DNA of 64,000 nucleotides from Candidatus Levybacteria bacterium RIFCSPHIGHO2_01_FULL_40_16 (GTDB lineage Bacteria; Patescibacteriota; Microgenomatia; Levybacterales; UBA12049), in contig MFNS01000001.1 of NCBI GenBank assembly GCA_001783805.1, positions 128,649 to 192,648 of the forward strand, in the 5' to 3' direction. The translations under genes were made by a program, and so were the position numbers. Within the stretch, counting starts at the first letter, position 1. Each line of letters starts with the position of its first letter. The notes under the pieces were generated by a model. It ran no database searches. It had not been told where the DNA came from and saw nothing but the letters and a program-made list of their open reading frames with translations. This document shows, piece after piece, positions 10,647 to 61,194 of the stretch.

Positions 10647-11808
10647 GAATTGAGAAATCGGTTAAATCAATAAGGCCATCGTTATTCATGTCGGACAAGG
10701 CATAATTAAGATTACCTATATTTTCCCAATCTGTTCCAAACATGGAAAGGTCTGTCAGATCTATAATGCTATCGCCGTTAATATCGCCGGGCCTATGAAC
10801 ATTAATAGTAATACTCACATTCGAACTTTTATTACCGAGATTATCCTGACCGTAGACAATAAATGTATTTGAAGCAAGTGTCAGGGTTGCCGGATATTGC
10901 CAGGTTGTTGAAGTTGGGTAAGTTGTAAGACTTGCATCACTATTTATGTAAACGCTTGCAACAATTATATCTTTAGCTCCCGTTAGGTTAAGTGAAATAG
11001 AATAGGTATCTAAGGGCTGTTGATCAATTGTCGGTGGAGGAACAACCGCAATTGTTGGGGCAGGAGTCGGAGTGTCGGTTGGGACAGACGTTGGAGTGGG
11101 GGTTGGGGCAGGTGTTGAAGTTGGGGTTGGGACAGGTGTTGAAGTTGGGGTTGGGGAAACAACAGGATTAATGGTGTACGAGCCGCTTTGCAGAGAAAGA
11201 AGTATTTCAGAGTTATTACTGTAGGCTTTTACGGAACCTTTGCTTAAAGTAATAGTACCGGTTCCCGCTCCATTTGCCGAAAGAGTAAGTGAGTAAAGAA
11301 TACATTGTGTTGAAGATCCATTTAAAATAGCCCCTGCGAAGGATGGATTACCGGGTGTAGGAGTTGCTTTTTGATTGGGAAAAGTGAAGTTGCATCCTCC
11401 GGAGGGTGCAGGCACAATATCGAGTGTCTGTACAGTGAGATTGCTAGAAACTGCAACTGCTGCTTGGGCCGCGTTAAATGCTTGTCCTCCCCCGGATATC
11501 ACAAGATTAACTATAAATTGCTGGCCGATTGAGTAAGACCCGGACGGCGGAGAAACACTAATAGTTGCAGTTTTATTTGCTGCAGCATTGGGAATAAAGA
11601 TCTGCTTGTTGGCTACAATAAAAGGAGTAGAAAAAGCAATAAGCAAAAAAATGACAATAGTAAATTTTAAAAATCTATCCAGCGATATAAATTCATCCCA
11701 AAGACTTTGTAGAATATTTTCTGTAGGTTCAGTGTCTTTGCCTTTGTACCTGGTTCTAACTGAAATAATCTTCGGCATATTTAGCCTATGTTTATAGTAT
11801 AGTGTCAA
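10624..11808 (-). CDS. secreted cohesin-like domain protein with Pro/Thr linker and C-terminal type-I dockerin
   Basis: Paralogous module VISGGGQAFNAAQAAVAVSSNLTVQTLDIV...FAGAILNGSSTQCILYSLTL. PT-rich linker PTPTSTPVPTPTSTPAPTPTPTSVPTDTPTPAPT. C-terminal duplicated Ca-binding dockerin repeats DINGDSIIDLTDLSMF and DMNNDGLIDLTDFSIL. Confidence 0.6.
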   Translation of the reverse strand: MTLYYKHRLNMPKIISVRTRYKGKDTEPTENILQSLWDEFISLDRFLKFTIVIFLLIAFSTPFIVANKQIFIPNAAANKTATISVSPPSGSYSIGQQFIVNLVISGGGQAFNAAQAAVAVSSNLTVQTLDIVPAPSGGCNFTFPNQKATPTPGNPSFAGAILNGSSTQCILYSLTLSANGAGTGTITLSKGSVKAYSNNSEILLSLQSGSYTINPVVSPTPTSTPVPTPTSTPAPTPTPTSVPTDTPTPAPTIAVVPPPTIDQQPLDTYSISLNLTGAKDIIVASVYINSDASLTTYPTSTTWQYPATLTLASNTFIVYGQDNLGNKSSNVSITINVHRPGDINGDSIIDLTDLSMFGTDWENIGNLNYALSDMNNDGLIDLTDFSILAKAYGN

Positions 11809-14122: not shown

Positions 14123-17107
14123 ATGAAACCCGTAAAACAGAATATAAATTTTCCGGAATTAGAAAGAGAAATTCTAAATAGATGGCAGGAGAAAGGAATT
14201 GTAAGAAAGTATTTAGAAAAAAATAAAAACTCAAAAGAAAAATTTTCTTTCCTTGATGGTCCGATCACCGCAAATAATCCAATGGGAGTTCATCATGCTT
14301 GGGGAAGGACATATAAGGATTTGTGGCAGAGATTCTGGAATATGCGGGGAAAAGCTCAAAGATTTCAAAATGGGTTTGACGAACAAGGGCTTTGGGTTGA
14401 AGTGGAAGTGGAAAAAGAATTGGGGCTGAAAAATAAAAAAGACATTGAAAATCTTGTTCCGGGAGACAAATTTAAAAGTCTCGTAAAATTTATTAATCTT
14501 TGCAAGCAAAGGGTTAAAAAATTTTCGGGAGTCCAGACAGAACAAAGTAAGCGTTTGGGATACTTCATGGATTGGGACAAATCCTATCACACCTCCTCCG
14601 ATAAAAATAATTATGCGATCTGGAATTTCTTAAAAGTTGTCCACGAAAAAGGTTGGCTGTACAAAGGCCGTGACTCTGTTCCCTGGTGTCCGCGCTGCGG
14701 AACCGCAATTTCCCAGCACGAGATTTTGACAGAGGAATATAAAAATATAACCCACGATTCGATCTATGTTGAATATCCGATTAAAAACAGGAAAAACGAA
14801 TATTTAATTGCTTGGACAACAACGCCCTGGACTTTAATTGCCAATATAGCTCTTGCCGTAAATCCCAATTACGATTACGTAATTGCAACAGGGGAAGAAA
14901 AGGGAAATATATATTATCTGCTTAAAGAGAGCGCGGAAAAATTAGGTCTTAAAATCAAAAAAAATATTAAAGGAAAAGATTTGATCGGACTAAACTATTC
15001 TTCTCCTTTTGATAATTTACCAAAAGTGAAAAAAACACTGGGGAAATATCTGCATCAAGTTATTGCTACAGACGAATTAATTCTGCCAATCAGTAAAATT
15101 GAAGGAACAGGAATTATCCATATCGCCACCGGATCGGGAAGCGAAGATTTTCAGCTTGGTAAAAAAAACAATTTACCGGTAATTGAAGTTATTGACGAAG
15201 GAGGGAATTATCTGGATGGTTTTGGAGAATTTAGCCAAAAAAATGCCAAAAGGCATCCCGAATTAATCATTGACTTTCTTAAATCTTTCGAAAATGGCAA
15301 CTACTTTTTCCTAACGGAAAAATACACCCATAGGTATCCGACTTGCTGGAGATGTAAAACGGAATTGGTTTGGCGAGTGGTTGACGAATGGTATATTGCG
15401 ATGGATAAAAAACCCAGCTCAAAGTTCAAAGCTCAAAGCTCAAGGCCAGAGAATAAAACTTATAGGGAGCAAATGGTTGAGGTGGCAAAGAAGATTAATT
15501 GGATTCCCGATTGGGGTTTGGATCGCGAACTGGACTGGCTTAAAAATATGCATGATTGGTTGATTAGTAAAAAAAGATATTGGGGGTTGGCTTTGCCAAT
15601 TTGGGAATGTCATAAATGCGGAAATTTCGAAGTGATTGGCGGAAAAGAGGAGCTTAAAAAACGTGCAGTTAAAGGTTGGGGAGAATTTGACGGCAATAGC
15701 CCGCACCGGCCTTGGGTGGACTTGGTAAAAATTAAGTGCAGTAAGTGCGATGAAGTTGCTTCCCGAATTCCTGATGTGGGAAATCCCTGGCTGGATGCGG
15801 GAATTGTTCCGTTTTCCACCCTGCCGAAAGAATGGTTTCCGGCAGATTTCATAACGGAGAGTTTCCCCGGGCAGTTTAAAAATTGGTTTTATTCTCTGAT
15901 TGCAATGTCCACTGCGCTTAAAAAAATCAATTCCTTTAAAACGGTTTTGGGGTTCGCATCGGTCAGAGATGAAGCAGGCGAAGAAATGCACAAGAGTAAA
16001 GGAAATGCAATTGAATTTAATGAGGCAGCGGATAAAATCGGCGTTGATGTAATGCGCTGGATGTATTTAAGACAGGATCCCGAACAAAATCTCAATTTTG
16101 GAGTCAATGCCGCTGACAATGTCAGAAGACAATTTCATTTAATGTTGTGGAATGTATATAATTTCTTTATTTCCAATGCCATTGCCGACAGCTGGACGCC
16201 TCAGGGGATGGAAAAACAATCGGAAAACGTTCTGGACAAATGGATAATATCCAGGCTAAATAAATTAATTAAGGTTGTTACTGCGTCACTTGAAAAATAT
16301 AATTCCTTTTCTGCCGGGAATGCTATTGAAAATTTTCTCAGTGATTTGTCACTTTGGTATGTCCGCCGGTCACGCGAGAGAATCGGATTGTCTGCCGAAG
16401 ATGCAAAAGACAAAAATAATTGCTATCAAACTTTATGGGAGGTTTTAGCCAGCCTTTGCCAAATTCTAGCGCCTTTCACGCCATTTATGGCAGAAGAAAT
16501 GTATTTAAACTTAACGAATAAGGATTCGGTGCATTTAAGTGCTTGGCCGGAAGTCGGAGATATCGATGAAAAGCTGGAGCAGGAGATGGATTTTGCCAGA
16601 AAAATTTGTGAAATGGGGCATGCAAAAAGAAAAGAAGCGCTGATTAAAGTCAGACAACCCCTGGCACAATTAACAATTAATAATTCGCAATTAACAATTA
16701 ACGGCGAGATAGTTGAGCTGATTAAAGACGAATTGAATATTAAAAAAGTGGTTTTTGAAAAAGGAAAAGGAGAAATGTCAGTGTCCCTTGATGTAAATTT
16801 AACCAAGGAATTGAAAGAAGAGGGGAAAGCGCGGGATATTGTAAGAATGATTCAGGGCGAGCGGAAAAAAATAGGGACAGCATTGGATGAAAAAATAGAT
16901 GTTGTCCTCAAGGATTGGCCAAGAGAATTCGAAAATGAAATAAAAAAGAAAGCAATGGTTGCAACCTTAAAAAAGGGAAATAATTTTGAGGTTGTCCGCA
17001 AACCCCGCATCGACAGTCATGCATTAGAAACGCTTAACTTTTCACATCGCGCATCTTCGCTAAGTCCACGCTCAAATAAACGTGGCATTGTGGTGCGGGG
17101 TAAATGA
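14123..17107 (+). CDS. ileS: isoleucine--tRNA ligase (class I, type 2)
   Basis: HIGH-region variant PMGVHHAWGRTYKD, KMSKS variant MHKSKGN, four Cys knuckles (CPRCG, CWRCK, CHKCG, CSKCD) and a CP1 editing region. Contains in-frame heptamer repeats at 15419-15446 and 16686-16720. Confidence 0.95.
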   Translation: MKPVKQNINFPELEREILNRWQEKGIVRKYLEKNKNSKEKFSFLDGPITANNPMGVHHAWGRTYKDLWQRFWNMRGKAQRFQNGFDEQGLWVEVEVEKELGLKNKKDIENLVPGDKFKSLVKFINLCKQRVKKFSGVQTEQSKRLGYFMDWDKSYHTSSDKNNYAIWNFLKVVHEKGWLYKGRDSVPWCPRCGTAISQHEILTEEYKNITHDSIYVEYPIKNRKNEYLIAWTTTPWTLIANIALAVNPNYDYVIATGEEKGNIYYLLKESAEKLGLKIKKNIKGKDLIGLNYSSPFDNLPKVKKTLGKYLHQVIATDELILPISKIEGTGIIHIATGSGSEDFQLGKKNNLPVIEVIDEGGNYLDGFGEFSQKNAKRHPELIIDFLKSFENGNYFFLTEKYTHRYPTCWRCKTELVWRVVDEWYIAMDKKPSSKFKAQSSRPENKTYREQMVEVAKKINWIPDWGLDRELDWLKNMHDWLISKKRYWGLALPIWECHKCGNFEVIGGKEELKKRAVKGWGEFDGNSPHRPWVDLVKIKCSKCDEVASRIPDVGNPWLDAGIVPFSTLPKEWFPADFITESFPGQFKNWFYSLIAMSTALKKINSFKTVLGFASVRDEAGEEMHKSKGNAIEFNEAADKIGVDVMRWMYLRQDPEQNLNFGVNAADNVRRQFHLMLWNVYNFFISNAIADSWTPQGMEKQSENVLDKWIISRLNKLIKVVTASLEKYNSFSAGNAIENFLSDLSLWYVRRSRERIGLSAEDAKDKNNCYQTLWEVLASLCQILAPFTPFMAEEMYLNLTNKDSVHLSAWPEVGDIDEKLEQEMDFARKICEMGHAKRKEALIKVRQPLAQLTINNSQLTINGEIVELIKDELNIKKVVFEKGKGEMSVSLDVNLTKELKEEGKARDIVRMIQGERKKIGTALDEKIDVVLKDWPREFENEIKKKAMVATLKKGNNFEVVRKPRIDSHALETLNFSHRASSLSPRSNKRGIVVRGK
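15419..15446 (+). repeat. heptanucleotide tandem repeat (CTCAAAG-like)x4 inside ileS
   Basis: ctcaaagttcaaagctcaaagctcaagg, encoding SSKFKAQSSR in a segment of IleRS between WYIAMDK and REQMVEVAKKINWIPDWG. Confidence 0.8.
16686..16720 (+). repeat. heptanucleotide tandem repeat (CAATTAA)x5, one variant unit, inside ileS
   Basis: caattaacaattaataattcgcaattaacaattaa, encoding LAQLTINNSQLTING. Confidence 0.8.
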
Positions 17108-20283: not shown

Positions 20284-20467
20284 GGACCCGTGGTTCAGTG
20301 GTAGAACGCTTCATTCACACCTGCCCGACTTTGTGAATGGACTTGTAGTTCAGAGGTAGAACGCTCGCTTCACATGCGAGAGCTCGATGGTTCGAGTCCA
20401 TCCAAGTCCACACAAAGTCCAGTCAGGCGGGTTGAAGAGGTCAGAGGTTCGAATCCTCTCGGGTCCA
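20284..20467 (+). tRNA. interrupted outer tRNA-Val(CAC)-like gene with a 112-nt insertion at anticodon-loop position 37/38
   Basis: The two halves form a perfect cloverleaf, so both halves are clearly tRNA-derived. It is uncertain whether the outer gene is expressed or spliced.
- Acceptor GGACCCG/CGGGTCC.
- D-arm GTTC-AGTGGTA-GAAC.
- Anticodon stem CTTCA/TGAAG, loop TTCACA|T.
- T-arm AGAGG-TTCGAAT-CCTCT.
- 5' half 20284-20319, 3' half 20432-20467. Confidence 0.5.
20339..20410 (+). tRNA. tRNA-Val (anticodon CAC), complete, nested inside the insertion
   Basis: Manual cloverleaf: acceptor GGACTTG/CAAGTCC, D-arm GTTC-AGAGGTA-GAAC, anticodon stem CTCGC/GCGAG with loop TTCACAT (CAC), variable AGCTC, T-arm GATGG-TTCGAGT-CCATC, discriminator A. 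No encoded CCA. Confidence 0.85.
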
Positions 20468-21270: not shown

Positions 21271-22292
21271 ATATTTTATTTTTTTCCCGTCGATTTTATC
21301 CCCATATAGGGGGAGTTGAGAAGCATGTTTTGGAAATTAGTCGGAACCTGATCAATAAAGGTCACAAAGTTATCGTTGTTACGGAACAGCATGCCCGTAA
21401 CTCTAAAATACAGGAAAATATTGAAGGAATTGATGTATTTAGGATTCCCAATCTAAGCGAGGGGTGGTTTAAGAAAATCCAGATTTGGAATTGGTTTTGG
21501 GCAAACAGAAAGCTTATAAAAAATGCAGACATTGTTCACTGCCATGACGTATTTTTTTGGTATTTACCGTTTAAATTTATATTTCCTTTTAAAAAAATAT
21601 TCACAACCTTTCATGGATATGAAGGTTACCCATTAACGTCAAAAGACATTTTAGTCCATAAAATATCGGAGAAATTATCAATGGGAAATATTTGCATTGG
21701 GGATTTTATTAAAAAATGGTACGGTACAAAACCAACTTTTGTTTCATACGGAGGAGTTAATAAAGTTAAAAGCGAAAAGTTAAAAGTTAAAAGTTCCGAA
21801 GGAGCGGTTTTTATCGGAAGACTTGACGAGCAAACGGGAATAATAACGTATGTTAAGGCGGTTGAGATAATCAAGAAGAAAATTCCAAATTTTGATTTTC
21901 TTATAATTGGAGATGGAAAACTTAAGACTGAAATTAGTGAAAAAATAAAAATATTGAAGCCCCGGAGCAATGCGGAAGAATACTTTAGAAAATATAGTTT
22001 TGCTTTTGTATCAAGATATCTCTCCATATTGGAAGCAATGGCTGCAAAAAGATTGGTCTTTGCAGTTTACGATAATCCTCTTAAGGAGGACTATTTAAGA
22101 ATGGCTCCTTTTTCGAAATATATTACAATTTCAAGTTCCCCATCCGAATTGGTTTCAAAAATTTCTTTTTATCTCGATAATCCTAGAGCTCAAGAGAAAA
22201 TGGTTAAAGAAGCAAATGCTTGGGTAAAAAAATATACTTGGGAAGAAATGACGGACATGTATTTAAAACTTTGGAAATCCGGAACGCATTAA
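21267..22292 (+). CDS. glycosyltransferase family 4 (GT-B)
   Basis: N-terminal MNILFFSRRFYPHIGGVEKHV typical of GT4/GT1 retaining transferases. Contains the heptamer repeat 21764-21791 (KVKSEKLKVKS). Confidence 0.75.
   Translation: MNILFFSRRFYPHIGGVEKHVLEISRNLINKGHKVIVVTEQHARNSKIQENIEGIDVFRIPNLSEGWFKKIQIWNWFWANRKLIKNADIVHCHDVFFWYLPFKFIFPFKKIFTTFHGYEGYPLTSKDILVHKISEKLSMGNICIGDFIKKWYGTKPTFVSYGGVNKVKSEKLKVKSSEGAVFIGRLDEQTGIITYVKAVEIIKKKIPNFDFLIIGDGKLKTEISEKIKILKPRSNAEEYFRKYSFAFVSRYLSILEAMAAKRLVFAVYDNPLKEDYLRMAPFSKYITISSSPSELVSKISFYLDNPRAQEKMVKEANAWVKKYTWEEMTDMYLKLWKSGTH
21764..21791 (+). repeat. heptanucleotide tandem repeat (AGTTAAA)x4, one variant unit, inside the GT4 gene
   Basis: agttaaaagcgaaaagttaaaagttaaa, encoding KVKSEKLKVK. 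Confidence 0.75.
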
Positions 22293-25826: not shown

Positions 25827-26777
25827 TTGAGTATGAAAGTTTCATTTATCGCTACGGTTTATAATGAAGAAAAATCAGTACTGCTATTATTAAAATCTAT
25901 ATTCTCTCAGTCCAGACTTCCGGATGAAATTATTATTGTTGACGGCGGTAGTCGCGACCGGACGGTCGCTAAAATTAAGAATTTAAAATTAAAAATTAAA
26001 AATTATAATGGGAAGTTTAAAATTATTGTAAAAAAAGGGAATAGATCGGTTGGCAGGAATGAAGCGATAAAAAATTCGAGCAATGGAATTATTATTTGTT
26101 CGGATGCAGGATGCATACTCGACAAGAATTGGGTTAAGAACATCATAGAGCCTTTTATAAATCCAGGTGTGGATGTGGTTGCCGGATATTACAAAGGTAA
26201 CGCTAAAACAATTTTTCAAAAATGTTTAATTCCCTATGTTTTAGTGACGGAAGATAAAATTAATTCTCAAAACTTTCTTCCCGCCACCCGCTCAATGGCT
26301 TTTAAAAAGTCAATTTGGGAGAAAGTAGGTAGATTTCCTGAGGAATTTAGTAATAACGAAGATTATGTTTTCGCTAAAAAATTAAAAAAAATTTCCGCCA
26401 ACATTGTTTTTGAAAAAAGTGCAATAGCTTATTGGATGCCAAGGGACAACTTAAAAGATGCCTTTGCAATGTTCTACCGTTTTGCAAAAGGCGATTCCGA
26501 ATCCCGTATTTTTAGACCAAAGGTATTTCTAATTTTTCTCCGGTATATTCTCGGTTTGACTCTTTTGTCATTATTTTTTCTTTTAAAGTCAGACTTAATA
26601 CTTAATACTTTATACTTAATACTTATTATCTATGTCCTTTGGTCGATATTAAAAAATTATAAATACGTCAAGGATATCCGTGCAGTTTTATTTCTCCCTT
26701 TATTGCAAATTATTTCCGATATCGCCGTAATGCTGGGTACAATTGCAGGATTATTTTCTTTTGTAGACCTCGACTAG
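25827..26777 (+). CDS. glycosyltransferase family 2 with C-terminal TM helices
   Basis: VSFIATVYNEEKSV...EIIIVDGGSRDRT GT2 motifs and a C-terminal hydrophobic segment. Contains heptamer repeats at 25972-26006 and 26594-26628. Confidence 0.75.
   Translation: MSMKVSFIATVYNEEKSVLLLLKSIFSQSRLPDEIIIVDGGSRDRTVAKIKNLKLKIKNYNGKFKIIVKKGNRSVGRNEAIKNSSNGIIICSDAGCILDKNWVKNIIEPFINPGVDVVAGYYKGNAKTIFQKCLIPYVLVTEDKINSQNFLPATRSMAFKKSIWEKVGRFPEEFSNNEDYVFAKKLKKISANIVFEKSAIAYWMPRDNLKDAFAMFYRFAKGDSESRIFRPKVFLIFLRYILGLTLLSLFFLLKSDLILNTLYLILIIYVLWSILKNYKYVKDIRAVLFLPLLQIISDIAVMLGTIAGLFSFVDLD
25972..26006 (+). repeat. heptanucleotide tandem repeat (AAATTAA)x5 inside the GT2 gene
   Basis: aaattaagaatttaaaattaaaaattaaaaattat, encoding KNLKLKIKNY. 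Confidence 0.7.
26594..26628 (+). repeat. heptanucleotide tandem repeat (CTTAATA)x5 inside the same GT2 gene (TM region)
   Basis: cttaatacttaatactttatacttaatacttatta, encoding LILNTLYLILI. Confidence 0.75.
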
Positions 26778-48823: not shown

Positions 48824-49327
48824 TTAATTAGCCTTTTTGATTTTTTTTAAGGCTTGTGAAATTACCTGTTCCTGCTCTTTGGATGAGAAAAATTGCCTCA
48901 AGGCCTTTTCTAGAAAAGCCACTGCCAATTTGCTGGTGCTTAACGCAAGTCTTTTTTCTGTTTCTATAGTCTCCTTGGCTATTTGTTCTCTGGTATCATT
49001 TAATAATTTCTCTGTTTGTTTTTTAGCTATCTCACTCATTCCCCTAGCTATTTCTAACGATTCCTGCTTTGCATCTTCGATAATTTTTTTGGATTGAAGT
49101 TGTGCTGTTCTTAAGATATTTTTTTCTTCAATAACTACTTTCTCAAGTTTGATTCTCGCATCTTCCGCCTGTTTCAAGCCTTCCCTAATCGTGATTTGTC
49201 TTTTTTTTAATACCTCAAGAATCGGTTTGTAAAGAAACTTTTTTAGTATAAACAATACAATCAAAAAATTAAATATCTGAGCGCCCAAAAGAACAGGATT
49301 TAACCCAAATTTTTCTACTATTTCCAT
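48824..49327 (-). CDS. atpF: F0F1 ATP synthase subunit b
   Basis: N-terminal TM helix (LGAQIFNFLIVLFILKKFLYKPI) followed by a long charged helix. Confidence 0.8.
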   Translation of the reverse strand: MEIVEKFGLNPVLLGAQIFNFLIVLFILKKFLYKPILEVLKKRQITIREGLKQAEDARIKLEKVVIEEKNILRTAQLQSKKIIEDAKQESLEIARGMSEIAKKQTEKLLNDTREQIAKETIETEKRLALSTSKLAVAFLEKALRQFFSSKEQEQVISQALKKIKKAN

Positions 49328-49340
49328 AAATTAATTATTA

Positions 49341-49418
49341 TCATTCTGAGCAAAACAAAGAATCCCATAAGATCCTTCTCAAACTTTGCCTGATCAGGAT
49401 GATTCCCTTAAAGCGGAA

Positions 49419-49420
<2 letters not shown>
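49341..49420. repeat. degenerate related palindromic element, copy C (atpF-atpE intergenic)
   Basis: TCATTCTGAGC...GAATCCC...GATCC...CCTGATCAGGATGATTCCC plus an extra GATTCC/GGAATC hairpin. Shares the TCATTCTGA and CAGGATGA cores with copies A and B. Confidence 0.45.
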
Positions 49421-49628
<208 letters not shown>

Positions 49629-53691: not shown

Positions 53692-55014
53692 TTATTTCAA
53701 TTTCATTTCCAGAGCAATTTTTATCTGATTGGCGTCTCCCTTGGGGAAATGTTGTTTTGCTTTTCCGAGTAAAAATCCAATAGCTTGAACTTTACCTGTT
53801 TTGTAGTCATTGACCGCTTTGGGGTTTTCATTGATGACTTTATTGATAATTTCACTTAGTTTCTTATTGTCAAGGATATTTATTTTTTTAGAAATTACAA
53901 TACATTTAATTAATTCTGCCGGCATTATGTTCTCAATATCGATTTTTTTGTTTATGATTACATTGGTAATTTGCTTTGCGTTTACTTCAAAAGTTTTCCC
54001 AGCTCTTACAGCTTCTTCAAAATAATTAGACAATTCCTTTTCTCGGGTCAAAATTTCCGCGTCATACCTTGGTAAACCATAATTTTTTGTAAATCTTACA
54101 AGTTTTAAGTCCGGCAATTCCGGCATTTGAGATTTGAAATTTGAGATTTGAAATTCCGATAATCGTATCGGCGGGATGTCCGGTTCCGGAAAGTAACGGT
54201 AATCATTCGCTTCTTCTTTGATTCTTTGGGAAACGGTTTTTTGTTTATCTTCATTCCATCCGCGCGTTTCCTGAACTGGCGTTTTTCCCACATTCAAAAT
54301 CTCCGTTTGTCTTTTAATTTCATATTCAATTGCCTTTTCTACAAATCGAAATGAATTAATGTTTTTAACTTCAACTTTATAATTTGGCAATTCGCTTTTG
54401 AGTTTTGAGTTTTGAGTTTTGAGTTCGCGAAGTGATATGTTGGGTTCAAGGCGCATGTTGCCTTCCTCCATGTCTGCGTTGGAAACGCCAAGATAGCGGA
54501 CGATTTGCTGAAGTTTTTTCAGGTATTCCACAACTTCTTTGGCGGTTTCAAAATCCGGTTCTGTCACAATTTCAACCAAAGGCACTCCGGAGCGATTAAA
54601 ATCTATCAATGAATCATCGCCTTGATGAGTCAATTTGGCAGTGTCTTCTTCCATGTGTACACGGGTAATGCCAATCTTTTTGCCGTTTGATAGGGCAATA
54701 ACCCCTTTTTGGCAAAAGGGCTGATCGTACTGACTTATTTGGTAGCCTTTGGGTAAATCGGGATAGAAATAGTTTTTCCGGTCAAATTTTGAAAAATTGG
54801 CAATTTTACAATTTAACGCCAGTCCAATCATGATGCACCAGTCAATAGCTGTTTTATTCGGGACAGGCAAAGCGCCGGGAAGACCTAAGCAAACGGGGCA
54901 GGTGTGAGCGTTAGGTTTCTTACCAAAATAATCCGCGGAACAACCGCAAAACATTTTAGATTTTGTTTTTAATTCAACATGAACTTCCAGTCCGATTACC
55001 GTTTTATAGATCAT
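53692..55014 (-). CDS. gatB: Asp-tRNA(Asn)/Glu-tRNA(Gln) amidotransferase subunit B
   Basis: MIYKTVIGLEVHVELKTKSKMFCGC N-terminus, NRSGVPLVEIVTEPD, and a C-terminal YqeY-like tail. Two in-frame heptamer repeats, at 54127-54154 and 54396-54423. Confidence 0.95.
   Translation of the reverse strand: MIYKTVIGLEVHVELKTKSKMFCGCSADYFGKKPNAHTCPVCLGLPGALPVPNKTAIDWCIMIGLALNCKIANFSKFDRKNYFYPDLPKGYQISQYDQPFCQKGVIALSNGKKIGITRVHMEEDTAKLTHQGDDSLIDFNRSGVPLVEIVTEPDFETAKEVVEYLKKLQQIVRYLGVSNADMEEGNMRLEPNISLRELKTQNSKLKSELPNYKVEVKNINSFRFVEKAIEYEIKRQTEILNVGKTPVQETRGWNEDKQKTVSQRIKEEANDYRYFPEPDIPPIRLSEFQISNFKSQMPELPDLKLVRFTKNYGLPRYDAEILTREKELSNYFEEAVRAGKTFEVNAKQITNVIINKKIDIENIMPAELIKCIVISKKINILDNKKLSEIINKVINENPKAVNDYKTGKVQAIGFLLGKAKQHFPKGDANQIKIALEMKLK
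54127..54154 (-). repeat. heptanucleotide tandem repeat (TTTCAAA/TCTCAAA)x4 inside gatB
   Basis: Plus strand tttgagatttgaaatttgagatttgaaa. Coding strand encodes EFQISNFKSQ. Confidence 0.8.
54396..54423 (-). repeat. heptanucleotide tandem repeat (CTCAAAA)x4 inside gatB
   Basis: Plus strand ttttgagttttgagttttgagttttgag. Coding strand ctcaaaactcaaaactcaaaactcaaaa encodes LKTQNSKLKS between conserved GatB blocks (SLREL...ELPNYKVEVKNINSFR). Confidence 0.85.
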
Positions 55015-55026
55015 AATTTTCTCCTT

Positions 55027-55092
55027 GTCATGCTGAATTTAGTTCAGCATCTCCCTTTTTGGGTAGATCCTGAAACGAGTTCAGGATGACAC
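55027..55092. repeat. double-hairpin palindromic element, copy A (gatA-gatB intergenic)
   Basis: GTCATGCTGAA-tttag-TTCAGCATC ... GATCCTGAA-acgag-TTCAGGATGACAC. About 80 percent identical to copy B. Ends at the gatA stop codon and lies just upstream of the gatB SD. Confidence 0.7.
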
Positions 55093-57727: not shown

Positions 57728-58060
57728 ATGGAACTTATGTTAACAAAAAAAGATATTAAGCAAATAATGCAGGGAGCTTTGAGAGAGTTCTTTGAGACCT
57801 TAGTCTTACAATATTTCGAGCATAACGAAAAGGAACATGGGGAAATGAAGACAATTCTTAAGTCGCACGATAAACGCTTTGATGATCTCGATAGTCGTTT
57901 TGACAGTCACGACAGGGACATTGATCTGATTCAGAGGAAATTGGAAAAGAGTGAGGATGATCATGAAGAAATTTTCAATAAACTTGAAAAAATTGACGGA
58001 CACGTCCAGGGTCAAGAAATAAGAATTTCAAAATTGGAAGACGTAGCCAGCATTATTTGA
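57728..58060 (+). CDS. hypothetical acidic coiled-coil protein
   Basis: 110 aa, highly charged, with a heptad-like pattern (KLEKSEDDHEEIFNKLEKIDGH). Flanked by 15-bp direct repeats TTTCTAGAGAATC(G/A)T at 57649-57663 and 58097-58111. Confidence 0.45.
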   Translation: MELMLTKKDIKQIMQGALREFFETLVLQYFEHNEKEHGEMKTILKSHDKRFDDLDSRFDSHDRDIDLIQRKLEKSEDDHEEIFNKLEKIDGHVQGQEIRISKLEDVASII

Positions 58061-58907
58061 TTTTCATCTTCTGAAGAATACTTTTTTTGGCGCATTTTTC
58101 TAGAGAATCATCGAGGGGATTTGGTACAATATTTTTATTGTATTTTTTTTCAAGGGCAATTTTAATTAATAAATCCGTGAACTGCGGATTTTTTGGCAGA
58201 ATTGGGCCGTGTAAATACGTTCCGAAGCTGTTTTTATAAACCGCACCTTCGGTTTCGTCCCCCGCCTGCCACGACTTGCCGTCTGGTATGGCGGGCAGGT
58301 CTCCATTATTTCCGTATCCCTTAATCACTTTTCCGAGTGGTTTAACCGATTTCCCCAAGTAAGTTCTTCCTCCATGATTTTCGAAACCCACCAGCGCTTG
58401 CTCATTGTCATTCTGACGAAGGTCAGAATCTCCTTTTGTATGAGATCCTGAAACAAGTTCAGGATGACACGGACTAATGGCGATGTTGCCAATTAAGCGG
58501 GGTTCATCGGGACCCGGGTTTTCGGTATATAGATCGAGAATATTTAAGCCTTTAATAATTTTTCCATCTGCTTCTCTATAATATTTTCCCAGGAATTGGT
58601 ACGCGCCGCAGATATAGAGTCCGGGGATTCCATCTTCAATCATCTCTTTTAATGCTTCACGCTTTTTTAATAAATCATAAGCGACAATTTTTTGCTGTTG
58701 ATCCTGTGCCCCGCCCATAAATATCAAATCGCACATTTTCAACTCATTAATCTTAAATTCTAAATCAAGCAATTTAATTTCAACTTTAATCCCGCGCCAT
58801 TCGCAGCGTTTTTGCAAAACAATAATATTTCCCCGGTCTCCGTATGTTGACATTAACTCCGGGTATAACCAGCCGATTACTAAATTGTATTTTGTATTAT
58901 GTATCAT
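58053..58907 (-). CDS. gatD: lipid II isoglutaminyl synthase glutaminase subunit GatD (CobB/CobQ-like GATase)
   Basis: Collinear with GatD: LYPELMSTYGDRGN, catalytic Cys context GLYICGAYQFLGK, VGFENHGGRTY, GTYLHGPILPKN. Carries a 26-aa in-frame insertion (SPCHPELVSGSHTKGDSDLRQNDNEQ) encoded by the palindromic element at 58407-58470. Confidence 0.8.
   Translation of the reverse strand: MIHNTKYNLVIGWLYPELMSTYGDRGNIIVLQKRCEWRGIKVEIKLLDLEFKINELKMCDLIFMGGAQDQQQKIVAYDLLKKREALKEMIEDGIPGLYICGAYQFLGKYYREADGKIIKGLNILDLYTENPGPDEPRLIGNIAISPCHPELVSGSHTKGDSDLRQNDNEQALVGFENHGGRTYLGKSVKPLGKVIKGYGNNGDLPAIPDGKSWQAGDETEGAVYKNSFGTYLHGPILPKNPQFTDLLIKIALEKKYNKNIVPNPLDDSLEKCAKKSILQKMKIK
58097..58111 (+). repeat. 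15-bp direct repeat TTTCTAGAGAATCAT (right copy)
   Basis: Right partner of the 57649-57663 repeat (same TTTCTAGAGAATC motif with the TCTAGA core). Lies 37 bp downstream of the 57728..58060 stop and inside the 3' end region of gatD. Confidence 0.6.
58407..58470. repeat. double-hairpin palindromic element, copy B (in-frame inside gatD)
   Basis: GTCATTCTGAcgaagGTCAGAATC ... GATCCTGAAacaAGTTCAGGATGACAC. Translated in the gatD frame with no stop codon. Confidence 0.7.
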
Positions 58908-58927
58908 GTATCATGTATCATGTATTA
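58886..58927 (-). repeat. heptanucleotide microsatellite (TGTATCA/TGTATTA)x6 spanning the gatD start codon and its 5' region
   Basis: tgtattttgtattatgtatcatgtatcatgtatcatgtatta. The gatD ATG (58907) and first seven codons (MIHNTKY) are encoded by the repeat. Confidence 0.8.
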
Positions 58928-58936
58928 AGTATAAAA

Positions 58937-60265
58937 TTATAGAATCTTCTTTCCTGTCAGAATTTTTCTTACGTCAAGCATGGCTGAATAGGTCGGTAAA
59001 ATATATAAAATCTCGTCTTTTAGTGTTGCGATTAAGGCATCGAAAACAGCCTCTTCAAGATTTTCTATAATTTTAAATTTTGAACTGTAATTTTGACTTT
59101 TGACGTTTGAATTTTGAGCTTTAGAAGAATATTTTAAACGTAAAGCCATATCAAAAGCCCGATCACCGGAAATCAAAATATTTTTAAATTTAGAAATGTA
59201 TTCCTCTGTGTCAGCATCCCAGATCCAGGAAACGTCTCTTCCGTCAGGAATGCGGTCATTCAAAACCAACAATAAATTCTTGGCATTTAACCTGACAATT
59301 GTTTTTAAAGATTCGTTAAGGCTTGTGGGATTTTTTGACAGGAAAATCTGTATTTTTTTTCCATAAACATTCAATATTTCCTGTCTGCCAAAAGCCGGCT
59401 TAAAGTCTTTCAAAGAGGATATAATTTTTTCATTGCTAAAGCCAATCTCTTTTGCCAAAAGAACAGCAGCATTAGTATTGTATTTATTGTAGTCTCCGAA
59501 CAAAGGATAAATCGGCGAAGAAGTAAATGTTTTTTGCGGATGTTTAAGTCCACAGTTATCGCAATGCCAATTACCAAGATGTGAGAAATATGCAGAGTCG
59601 TAAGCTAATTTTCGGCCGCAATTCGGACAATAAGTTGAATCAGAAGCATGTTGGGCTTTATTAATACCATTTGCCGGATTAATTCCAAAGTATTTTACAG
59701 TTGCACCTTTAAGGTGTAAGCCTAAATAAGTTATTTGCGGATCATCAGCATTCAATATTAGGGTTGTTGCGCTATTTAATTTCTTCAAAGCTTCGCGCCA
59801 TTTACTGGCGATAGTATTTATTTCTCCATATCGATCCAATTGATCGCGGAATAAATTTAAAAGAATTATAAAATTAGGATCGGCTATTTCCTTCAAAATC
59901 AACGGAAGCGTATTTTCGTCAATTTCAAAAATCGTATAATCATAATTTAATGTACAAAGTACGTTGCTATGTAGCAGCATACTTGAAGCAATGCCGTTGA
60001 GAAGGTTTGCGCCACCTTCATTTTGGAAGACGCGGTAATTATTTTTTTTCAAAATAGTTCTTATCAGTTTGGCAGTAGTTGTTTTTCCGTTAGTTCCGGC
60101 AATCAAGATAATTTTTAATTTTGGATTATGCTTTAAAATTTGCTTGATAAAGTTTGGATTTATGGATAAGGCAATATGCCCCGGCCAAGTTGACCCCGAT
60201 CCGAGATTAAGTAAGCGACTAAAGGCTGAGAGTAATTTACCAAGCAGGATCAATAATAAATTCAT
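58937..60265 (-). CDS. murT: lipid II isoglutaminyl synthase MurT (Mur ligase family with zinc ribbon)
   Basis: N-terminus LILLGKLLSAFSRLLNLGSGSTWPGHIAL, Mur ligase P-loop IAGTNGKTTTAKLI, and the Cys4 ribbon CPNCGRK...CDNCGLK characteristic of MurT. Start trimmed to ATG 60265 from the listed 60364. Confidence 0.8.
   Translation of the reverse strand: MNLLLILLGKLLSAFSRLLNLGSGSTWPGHIALSINPNFIKQILKHNPKLKIILIAGTNGKTTTAKLIRTILKKNNYRVFQNEGGANLLNGIASSMLLHSNVLCTLNYDYTIFEIDENTLPLILKEIADPNFIILLNLFRDQLDRYGEINTIASKWREALKKLNSATTLILNADDPQITYLGLHLKGATVKYFGINPANGINKAQHASDSTYCPNCGRKLAYDSAYFSHLGNWHCDNCGLKHPQKTFTSSPIYPLFGDYNKYNTNAAVLLAKEIGFSNEKIISSLKDFKPAFGRQEILNVYGKKIQIFLSKNPTSLNESLKTIVRLNAKNLLLVLNDRIPDGRDVSWIWDADTEEYISKFKNILISGDRAFDMALRLKYSSKAQNSNVKSQNYSSKFKIIENLEEAVFDALIATLKDEILYILPTYSAMLDVRKILTGKKIL
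59078..59119 (-). repeat. heptanucleotide tandem repeat (NNTCAAA)x6 inside murT
   Basis: Plus strand ttttgaactgtaattttgacttttgacgtttgaattttgagc. Coding strand encodes SSKAQNSNVKSQNYSSKFK near the MurT C-terminus. Confidence 0.7.
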
Positions 60266-60294
60266 TGATATATTATATCCTATGACATTGAAGA

Positions 60295-61194
60295 TTACAT
60301 TGAGCGGAGGATCTTGATGCGTTCTGCGATTGGCGGATGAGTATTGAAAAGACTTGTGAACCAATGCTTGGAATTAGCGTGAAGCTTAAAGGGATTTGAG
60401 ATGTATAGGTGTGCGGTAGCATTATTGGCAGCTTCAAGAGGTTCTTTGTCTCTGGAAATTTTTTCCAGAGCAGACGCCAAACCTTCGGGATAACGTGTTA
60501 AAAGAGCTCCTGATGCATCGGCGAGAAACTCTCTTTTTCGGGAAACTGCAAGTTGAATTAAGGTTGCAATAATAGGAGATAAAATCGCAAACGCGATTCC
60601 AATTAATAAGAATATGCTTTGAGAGCTACCCCTGTCATCTCTTCTTCTTCCACCCCCGTACCATAAGCTACGCATGAAAAAATCAGCCAGAAGTGCCACT
60701 AAACCCACCAAAATTACGACAATCGCCATAAGTCTGATATCGTAATTTCTTACATGGGAAAGCTCATGGGCAATAACTCCCTCAAGTTCAACCCTATTTA
60801 ATCTTCCTAGAATCCCTGTTGTTACGCAGACAACGGAATGCTTTGGATCTCGTCCCGTAGCAAATGCATTAATAGCCGAATCCTCGATAATGTAGATTTT
60901 AGGCAACGGAGTTCCTGCGCCAATGCAAAGATTTTCGACTATCCTGAAAAGTTGAGGATTATCAGCTTTTTTAATTTGTTTGGCTCCGGACATTCCCAGA
61001 ATCATTTTGTCTGAGTAATAATAACTTGAAAAAACCATGATTCCTGAAAAAATAAGTCCTATTCCCGCGTACGATAAGCCGTAACCTGATGCTTTACCAT
61101 AGACAAAAAGAATAGTGGTTATGAAAATAACAAACAAAAACATTATTAACCAGGTCTTCGTTTTGTTTGAAGATATCTGAGAGTAAATGTTCAT
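60295..61194 (-). CDS. htpX: zinc metalloprotease HtpX (M48)
   Basis: HELSHVRN zinc-binding motif and four TM helices. Confidence 0.9.
   Translation of the reverse strand: MNIYSQISSNKTKTWLIMFLFVIFITTILFVYGKASGYGLSYAGIGLIFSGIMVFSSYYYSDKMILGMSGAKQIKKADNPQLFRIVENLCIGAGTPLPKIYIIEDSAINAFATGRDPKHSVVCVTTGILGRLNRVELEGVIAHELSHVRNYDIRLMAIVVILVGLVALLADFFMRSLWYGGGRRRDDRGSSQSIFLLIGIAFAILSPIIATLIQLAVSRKREFLADASGALLTRYPEGLASALEKISRDKEPLEAANNATAHLYISNPFKLHANSKHWFTSLFNTHPPIAERIKILRSM

Follow-up and report, generated by a model that had tools for sequence, protein, structure and literature searches.

Two short palindromic elements in a 64,000-nucleotide stretch of the genome of Candidatus Levybacteria bacterium RIFCSPHIGHO2_01_FULL_40_16 (contig MFNS01000001.1, positions 128,649 to 192,648; the whole stretch is referred to here as the window) are probably head-head heterodimers of CGTC-tagged repetitive extragenic palindromic (REP) hairpins, which are small non-autonomous palindromic repeats. 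One of them, copy B, lies in frame within gatD, the gene for the glutaminase subunit of the lipid II isoglutaminyl synthase, and the other, copy A, fills the gap between gatA and gatB. The original prediction, made from the letters of the window, had described three related double-hairpin copies (A, B, and C); the first two were confirmed as real and intact at their coordinates, whereas the third is only an eroded relative. The family itself is already described, and what is new is the Levybacteria host, within the candidate phyla radiation (CPR), together with a GatD loop that serves as a recurrent landing site for palindromes. The features on which the argument rests are as follows.

58053 to 58907, minus strand: gatD, glutaminase subunit of lipid II isoglutaminyl synthase, 284 residues, host of copy B (PF07685; match to Staphylococcus aureus GatD)
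58407 to 58470, minus strand: copy B, putative head-head CGTC-type REP heterodimer in gatD, in frame in the open reading frame (ORF) 58053-58907(-), conceptual translation ...SP-CHPELVSGSHTKGDSDLRQND-NEQ...
58442 to 58470, minus strand: B unit 1, gene-sense, with G-TGTC tag, stem ATCCTGAA/TTCAGGAT, loop CTTGT, and tail CTC; encodes CHPELVSGS
58407 to 58432, plus strand: B unit 2, with (T)GTC tag on the plus strand, stem ATTCTGAC/GTCAGAAT, 4-nt loop GAAG, and tail CTC; gene-strand reading DSDLRQND
58433 to 58441, no strand: spacer between the B units, A-rich on the gene strand (54% identity among orthologs, length 4 to 13 nt)
55027 to 55092, minus strand: copy A, putative head-head REP dimer filling the gatA-gatB gap, units at 55027-55050(+) and 55067-55090(-)
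49341 to 49420, minus strand: copy C, eroded REP dimer between atpE (49419-49625) and atpF (48824-49327)

The 27-nt second hairpin (GATCCTGAAACNAGTTCAGGATGACAC), predicted to be nearly invariant, was identical in A and B and occurred exactly twice in the window (55066-55092 and 58444-58470), with 0 occurrences expected from 100 shuffles, and a looser two-hairpin pattern recovered only the same two places. A generic scan of the window for GTC followed by an 8-bp stem with an AT start, in which perfect or near-perfect stems were accepted, returned exactly four units, corresponding to both dimers, compared to 0.6 expected. A and B could be aligned over their whole length, which disposes of the concern that the copies might prove unrelated when properly aligned. 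In all four intact units the TGTC tag stands immediately 5′ of an 8-bp, AT-start stem; the stems ATCCTGAA, ATTCTGAC, and ATGCTGAA pair with zero mismatches, the loops measure 5, 4, 5, and 5 nt, and the GTC before the stem and the C right after it are kept in every unit, with the tail reading CTC or CTA. The hairpin 1 stems of A (ATGCTGAA/TTCAGCAT) and B (ATTCTGAC/GTCAGAAT) differ by compensating, paired changes, and within each dimer the two units differ in stem sequence, so that both A and B are heterodimers. Read on the gene strand, B consists of G-TGTC-ATCCTGAA-CTTGT-TTCAGGAT-CTC, a 9-nt spacer, and GAG-ATTCTGAC-CTTC-GTCAGAAT-GACA. Single-strand folding compared with shuffled controls gave z = -3.0 to -3.2 for B and z = -5.2 to -5.8 for A. 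Copy C has the same layout of two inverted units with tags outward and shares the blocks TCATTCTGA, GAATC, AGATCCT, and TCAGGATGA with A and B in the same order; its tags are mutated (ATC/GAT), its loops have grown, only 5 bp of each stem remain, and it does not fold significantly (z = -1.4).

The positions proposed for the intergenic copies, A in the gatA-gatB gap and C between atpE and atpF, were borne out. The last base of A (55092) belongs to the TAG stop codon of gatA, and A ends 12 nt short of the gatB start, with the AAGGAG ribosome-binding site of gatB at 55015-55026. No direct repeat (target-site duplication) flanks A or B, and the elements thus do not qualify as miniature inverted-repeat transposable elements, though the units are inverted copies. 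Rfam applied to the whole window at the gathering threshold returned three tRNAs only, and a permissive scan around copy A yielded only sub-threshold chance matches. A hammerhead ribozyme, prompted by the strings CTGACGA and GAAAC in B, was dropped as a candidate because A has neither string and there was no Rfam match. Separately, we observed that on the antisense (plus) strand one REP unit together with the T-rich spacer scores as intrinsic-terminator-like in A and B alike (55030-55060 and 58410-58439); terminator-like sites are not enriched across the region.

The assignment to a family rests on published descriptions of CGTC-tagged REPs (Di Nocera, De Gregorio & Rocco 2013, BMC Genomics 14:522, PMC3733652). 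These carry a terminal CGTC tag, often TGTC and in a variant CCTC, an 8- or 9-bp stem that almost always begins with A-T and then T-A, a 4- or 5-nt loop, and an unpaired short tail with the consensus CCA. Head-head dimers with the tags outside predominate and often combine two different units; they are located just 3′ of ORFs, with occasional in-frame intragenic dimers that encode 20-30 residues, no dedicated transposase is known for them, and five host phyla were reported (PMC3733652). All four window units possess the tag, stem, loop, and dimer arrangement of this family. The resemblance is closest to the CGTC-2 group, with which the window elements share the tag, the 8-bp AT-start stem, the 4-5-nt loop, heterodimers, placement after ORFs, and in-frame dimers. 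A CGTC-2 unit in Sulfurovum SUN_0512 encodes RHSELVSGS (PMC3733652), and the CHPELVSGS of the window GatD differs from it only at residue 1 (C/R) and residue 3 (P/S). The window elements depart from CGTC-2 REPs in that B pairs one 5-nt-loop unit with one 4-nt-loop unit and in that Levybacteria and other CPR were not among the five reported phyla; the 2013 study also described neither a dedicated enzyme nor a recurrent insertion site like the GatD loop. A literature search found no papers for the peptide strings of the element, and its DNA strings matched primers only.

Two better-known repeat systems invite comparison. The behavior of the window elements had been likened to that of Rickettsia palindromic elements (RPEs), and the likeness holds: in both cases a small genome has palindromic repeats in intergenic positions as well as in frame in essential genes. 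It is closer than an analogy, since Neisseria dRS3 and Rickettsia conorii RPE-6 were classed as CGTC-1 and RPE-4 as CGTC-4 (PMC3733652), which places them in the same superfamily; the link to the window elements is an indirect one that runs through that 2013 classification. The window units, which have 8-bp stems and a CTGAA core, fall into a different subfamily. They are far shorter than classic RPE-1, which measures about 100-150 bp. The REPIN/RAYT system similarly has a repeat unit of two inverted short hairpins, many copies with a single associated enzyme gene, and hairpins thought to act as single-stranded DNA. It differs in that the window tag is TGTC ((C/T)GTC) rather than GTAG, in that the two halves of the window elements differ in stem, and in that the gene associated with window-type units elsewhere encodes a GIY-YIG nuclease rather than a Y1/HUH transposase.

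The host of copy B was identified as GatD by its PF07685 domain and by a match to the S. aureus GatD structures 5N9M/6GS2 (E = 3e-44), and the claim that B is read in frame within this gene was upheld. The HMMER alignment to S. aureus GatD breaks at query residues 144|165, corresponding to 135|136 of the S. aureus chain. The distance from RLIGN to GFENHGG is 11-12 residues in orthologs with an empty site compared to 32 in the window GatD; the insert therefore adds approximately 20-21 residues, not the 26 first proposed, which include native loop residues. Comparison of orthologs agreed that the segment is an insert rather than conserved GatD sequence, since it is absent from characterized GatD proteins and from 9 of the 120 nearest orthologs. 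The peptide LIGNIAISPCHPELVSGSHTK spans the insert junction. The ortholog alignment shows no variation at C100, R137, and H233, which match S. aureus C94, R128, and H189, residues shown to be essential (PMC5871853). The parts of GatD that contact MurT are helices alpha2 and alpha7 and the loop beta13-alpha6 (PMC6113224), and the site of copy B falls outside them. Removal of the insert by splicing was considered and appears unlikely: the frame is kept in all 80 orthologous gatD DNA loci obtained from metagenomes, and the sequence shows neither ribozyme nor intein features.

The GatD loop is a hot spot for palindromic inserts. An empty loop of 11-12 residues was found in only 9 of the 120 nearest orthologs, and the others hold varied, often palindromic inserts; the predicted gatD insertion is thus not a one-off, as the loop carries a B-type dimer, another REP type, or another palindrome in most close orthologs. 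CHPELVSGS occurs in at least 22 of these 120 proteins, usually with DSDLRQND and in the same frame and orientation, a figure that is inflated because a shared insert raises the search score. Other orthologs read a B-type unit in another frame (VILNLFQDL) or carry other CGTC-type units at the loop (VIANKVKQS and VILVSEAHPES...DSGQARMT), unrelated palindromes (RFKI/NHKS, TDLRG..TSEV, and SSLF..MNH types), or a run of 7-nt tandem repeats (ILNTKYLIHNT). The CGTC form of the tag, rather than TGTC, is also present among them (e.g., 'NRHPELVSGS' in ortholog P0011). All inserts in the 80 DNA loci maintain the reading frame, and 19 of 53 loop inserts folded at z < -2, compared with 4 of 106 control segments of the same genes.

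The DNA of the inserts is better conserved than its surroundings. Across five loci with a B-type dimer, nucleotide identity was 71-72% in the flanking gatD DNA, 96% in unit 1, 100% in the 23-nt core of unit 2, and 54% in the spacer, and synonymous positions inside the units are invariant. In a tree built without the site, which was poorly resolved, the REP-bearing orthologs were scattered, and their nearest relatives outside the site usually carry a different insert or none. For example, P0004 and P0107 are 94.4% identical outside the site and hold different dimers inside the same TGTCAT...AATGAC tags. A single ancient insertion followed by plain vertical descent was rejected as the whole story, because REP-bearers are scattered and their nearest relatives differ; the pattern is better explained by insertion on repeated occasions or by exchange of the interior with the tags staying fixed. 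Conversion from other copies, re-insertion, or recombination between lineages could each be the source. A more specific proposal is that the beta-hairpin loop of Microgenomates GatD is a fixed docking site, at which palindromic cassettes would be swapped repeatedly between TGTCAT...ATGAC tags by cutting of an extruded single-stranded hairpin (by an Ssn-type nuclease or similar) and repair from other copies. We think this unlikely and raise it tentatively, as it would explain both the units that remain 96-100% identical amid 72% gene drift and the differing cassettes in 94%-identical proteins. If true, it would amount to site-specific, hairpin-based exchange of coding segments in an essential enzyme.

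Two neighboring features belong to the same locus.

58261 to 58298, minus strand: second in-frame gatD palindrome, GC-rich and not of the CGTC type, adding approximately 13 residues (LPAIPDGKSWQAG) between GNNG and DETEG
58937 to 60364, minus strand: murT (Mur_ligase_M and MurT_C), directly upstream of gatD, its partner gene

The site of the second palindrome was locatable in 74 orthologous loci (75 sequences with the window's own copy), six of which carry same-site inserts of the LPA...QAG type, where the usual segment is 5 residues. Inserts of this type also occur at a C-terminal site in some GatD orthologs.

The element is found across many bacterial phyla and is not specific to the CPR. 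One genome per species was scanned with a pattern in which only unit 1 and the six initial bases of unit 2 (GGAGAT) were fixed, and at least 119 loci from many bacterial phyla were recovered. The matches listed, to which the details that follow apply, included cultured Bacteroidota (Tamlana, Pedobacter, Kordia, and Gillisia), Treponema, Ignavibacteria/Chlorobiota, Chloroflexi (Dehalococcoidia), Alpha- and Gammaproteobacteria, Rickettsiales, Campylobacterota, Nitrospirae (Nitrospiraceae), Planctomycetota, KSB1, Elusimicrobia, Gastranaerophilales, and Coriobacteriales, as well as 18 loci from CPR, of which six belong to Levybacteria (L014, L051, L068, L101, L109, and L114). The second unit, left unspecified by the pattern, was present and ended in ATGAC in 76 of the 128 matches listed, with 18 different stems. 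This is the informative figure for pairing, as the covariation set of 39 distinct 5-nt-loop versions, in which 97.8% of cells pair and five of the eight stem pairs change on both sides, had been preselected for pairing. Of 126 dimers among the matches listed, 13 lay inside long ORFs that read through them, and CPR examples include MurD (L086), a FemAB-family protein (L114, Levybacteria), and a Wzy_C-domain (O-antigen-ligase-like) protein (L101). A scan of viral contigs gave one match, which did not resemble the element. The claim that an analogous family in a CPR genome, within a cell-wall enzyme, would be notable therefore stands as to presence and place, and is weaker as to novelty, since the family is known and spans many phyla. 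Among the matches listed we also observed that in Pedobacter psychrodurus (L016, approximately 1397-1500) the units form longer tandem or clustered arrays rather than isolated dimers, and that Treponema sp. UBA4232 contributed seven loci (L007, L010, L031, L039, L040, L077, and L107), which suggests a very high copy number of units in that genome.

Some copies elsewhere stand beside genes for a candidate enzyme. The Neisseria repeat NTS (CGTCATTCCCGCG...CGGGAATC) is a target of SsnA, a GIY-YIG nuclease with 94 residues and a single domain, which binds and cuts it solely in single-stranded form (Nat Commun 2025, 16:2388, PMC11893778). Cutting by Ssn needs 3 nt before the stem, and binding needs the C after it; the substrate is single-stranded DNA and not RNA, ssn genes are commonly flanked by repeats, and a role of SsnA in limiting natural transformation has been demonstrated only in Neisseria (PMC11893778). 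Using a profile made from 120 small GIY-YIG proteins, we detected small GIY-YIG genes in five of the at least 119 loci. In L069 (5056-6286), each of two such genes has inverted GTCATCCTGAACTTGTTTCAGGATCT units on both sides, the tags facing outward, and these units equal B unit 1 over the 24-nt core of tag plus stem-loop. In two Parcubacteria loci, L063 (5082-5480) and L076 (1-525), the dimer lies 16-30 nt downstream of a small GIY-YIG gene. The window units resemble NTS and the Ssn-related motifs in having (C/T)GTC, an AT-start hairpin, and a C after the stem, and the repeat-gene-repeat arrangement around a ~95-residue GIY-YIG gene in L069, L063, and L076 resembles that of ssnA, with units identical to B unit 1. 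Since units with the sequence of B unit 1 enclose Ssn-like genes elsewhere, the short dimers appear to derive from a REP-ssn-REP unit and to lack its gene. The two cassettes of L069 are arranged in tandem, and a stop codon appears to interrupt the second one.

Several observations weigh against the assignment and the enzyme link. The tail of the window units is CTC or CTA, compared with the CCA consensus of CGTC-tagged REPs, and the intact dimers seen in the 64-kb window number two, plus the one eroded. The profile from 120 proteins found no Ssn-like GIY-YIG gene in the window. The published pattern for Ssn-related motifs, HGTCWYN(0-2)YYVSBRHN(0-5)WNVSBRGN(0-2)RNCYNB, gave 0 matches in the window and fitted 0 of the 4 units, the stems of which are AT-richer. 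For the GIY-YIG neighbors in other genomes, Pfam sees the GIY-YIG domain alone, and searches of PDB and NCBIfam gave no match or nothing informative; these proteins look Ssn-like (cd10448) by size, single-domain architecture, and gene context, and not by a family model. Translation of copy B is most likely, as judged only from conservation of the frame, and the count of orthologs with the B-type dimer (22 of 120) is, as noted above, inflated. An AlphaFold model of GatD (33-sequence alignment, mean predicted local distance difference test score of 62) places the insert between strands 140-146 and 172-176, and this model is poor, being fit for strand positions only and not for exposure.

Taken together with these reservations, the assignment to CGTC-tagged REPs suggests the following explanation. 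The hairpins probably act as single-stranded DNA, and an Ssn-type nuclease would mobilize or handle them in this organism. Copy B occupies the tip of the loop that joins two GatD beta-strands, where it is most likely translated as a tolerated ~20-21-residue extension of a beta-hairpin; the essential Cys, Arg, and His remain intact. Copies A and C are probably ordinary operon-internal REPs just after a stop codon and may influence the gatCAB and atp messages; the role in mRNA processing or stability proposed for them at the outset is plausible by analogy with other REPs.

A competing account is that the hairpins are kept for work at the RNA level, with A and C forming stem-loops within their operons to control relative mRNA stability, processing, or translation termination, with B as a structure in the gatD message, and with the DNA element as a mere vehicle. 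We consider this possible but doubtful. The location of A, from the gatA stop to 12 nt before the gatB start, and of C, between atpE and atpF, is the typical REP position near the 3′ end of the upstream ORF; the stems covary, the gatD units show conserved synonymous sites alongside a drifting spacer, and the antisense unit with its T-rich spacer is terminator-like in A and B. Nevertheless, there is no Rfam match, conservation extends beyond the pairing to the loop, tag, and tail, as expected of a site recognized by a protein and not of a bare stem, and Ssn acts on single-stranded DNA and not on RNA. Copy C has decayed in place, which disfavors a needed function there, and the region shows no enrichment of terminator-like sites. 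Function as RNA is compatible with the explanation by CGTC-tagged REPs and does not exclude it.

The palindromes might instead arise or be renewed in place, if template switching, or repair templated by a hairpin, acts at a fragile site in the loop-coding DNA; they would then not have arrived as mobile units. The many unrelated palindromes that the GatD site holds besides REPs, the different GC-rich palindrome at the second gatD site, and the absence of a target-site duplication at A and B are in keeping with this idea. It is quite improbable, however, since the 24-nt core of B unit 1 is identical in unrelated phyla and beside GIY-YIG genes, which local template switching cannot yield. In addition, the tag and tail lie outside the palindrome and yet are conserved, and close orthologs differ by replacement of whole units between fixed tags, not gradually.

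That the segment belongs to GatD natively, as a lineage-specific loop retained for its amino acid sequence, its likeness to copy A being incidental, is highly improbable and is already contradicted by the data. The recurrence of CHPELVSGS...DSDLRQND in at least 22 of the 120 nearest orthologs, with shared frame and orientation, and the intact catalytic residues would suit such a loop, but the same nucleotides are present in the non-coding copy A and in at least 119 loci from other phyla, the synonymous positions in the units are invariant compared with flanks that are 72% identical, the closest relatives outside the site carry other inserts or none, and other orthologs read the unit in another frame as VILNLFQDL. 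The chance that the insert is an assembly or sequencing artefact, a repeat misjoined into gatD, is negligible: the genome is metagenome-assembled and repeats may mislead assemblers, but the identical protein is recorded from 21 contigs of several sources, an independent Joint Genome Institute contig (L125) has the same gatD insert, and orthologs from unrelated samples carry it at the same site.

Other repeats were noted in the window. Many short tandem arrays have a 7-nt period (1772-1798, 15416-15443, 16666-16702, 21762-21795, 25971-26005, and 26593-26625), and some of these lie inside genes, in frame (gatB, 54125-54155 and 54396-54425; murT, 59091-59122). An (ATACATG/ATACAWA)n array at 58886-58932 spans the murT-gatD junction and the gatD start codon, giving the recurrent N-terminus MIHNTKY, and a related array fills the GatD loop of the orthologs that read ILNTKYLIHNT. 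Just upstream of tRNA-Val (20339-20411), the segment 20284-20338 contains a copy of the first ~36 nt of that tRNA gene at 81% identity and, after it, a hairpin with a perfect 8-bp stem. This segment is not called as a tRNA by ARAGORN or by Rfam, and it may be a remnant left by an element that had integrated at the tRNA gene. Finally, a tandem repeat with a 24-nt period (GTTGGGGCAGGAGTCGGAGTGxxG, ~4.3 copies) at 11054-11173 is G-rich compared with the 37% GC of the genome.

These results provide a name and a candidate enzyme partner for a repeat that litters metagenome-assembled genomes, where it yields spurious short ORFs (VILNLFQDL and DPETSSG*) and unexplained loops in real proteins. The published search pattern for Ssn-related motifs misses a large, AT-richer subfamily to which such units belong. 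The range of CGTC-type REPs extends to reduced CPR genomes, in which several cell-wall enzymes contain them in frame (GatD in the window, MurD and a FemAB-family protein in related genomes). The GatD loop can serve as a natural experiment, both for the way in which an essential enzyme tolerates palindromic DNA and for whether hairpins are maintained by selection, conversion, or re-insertion.

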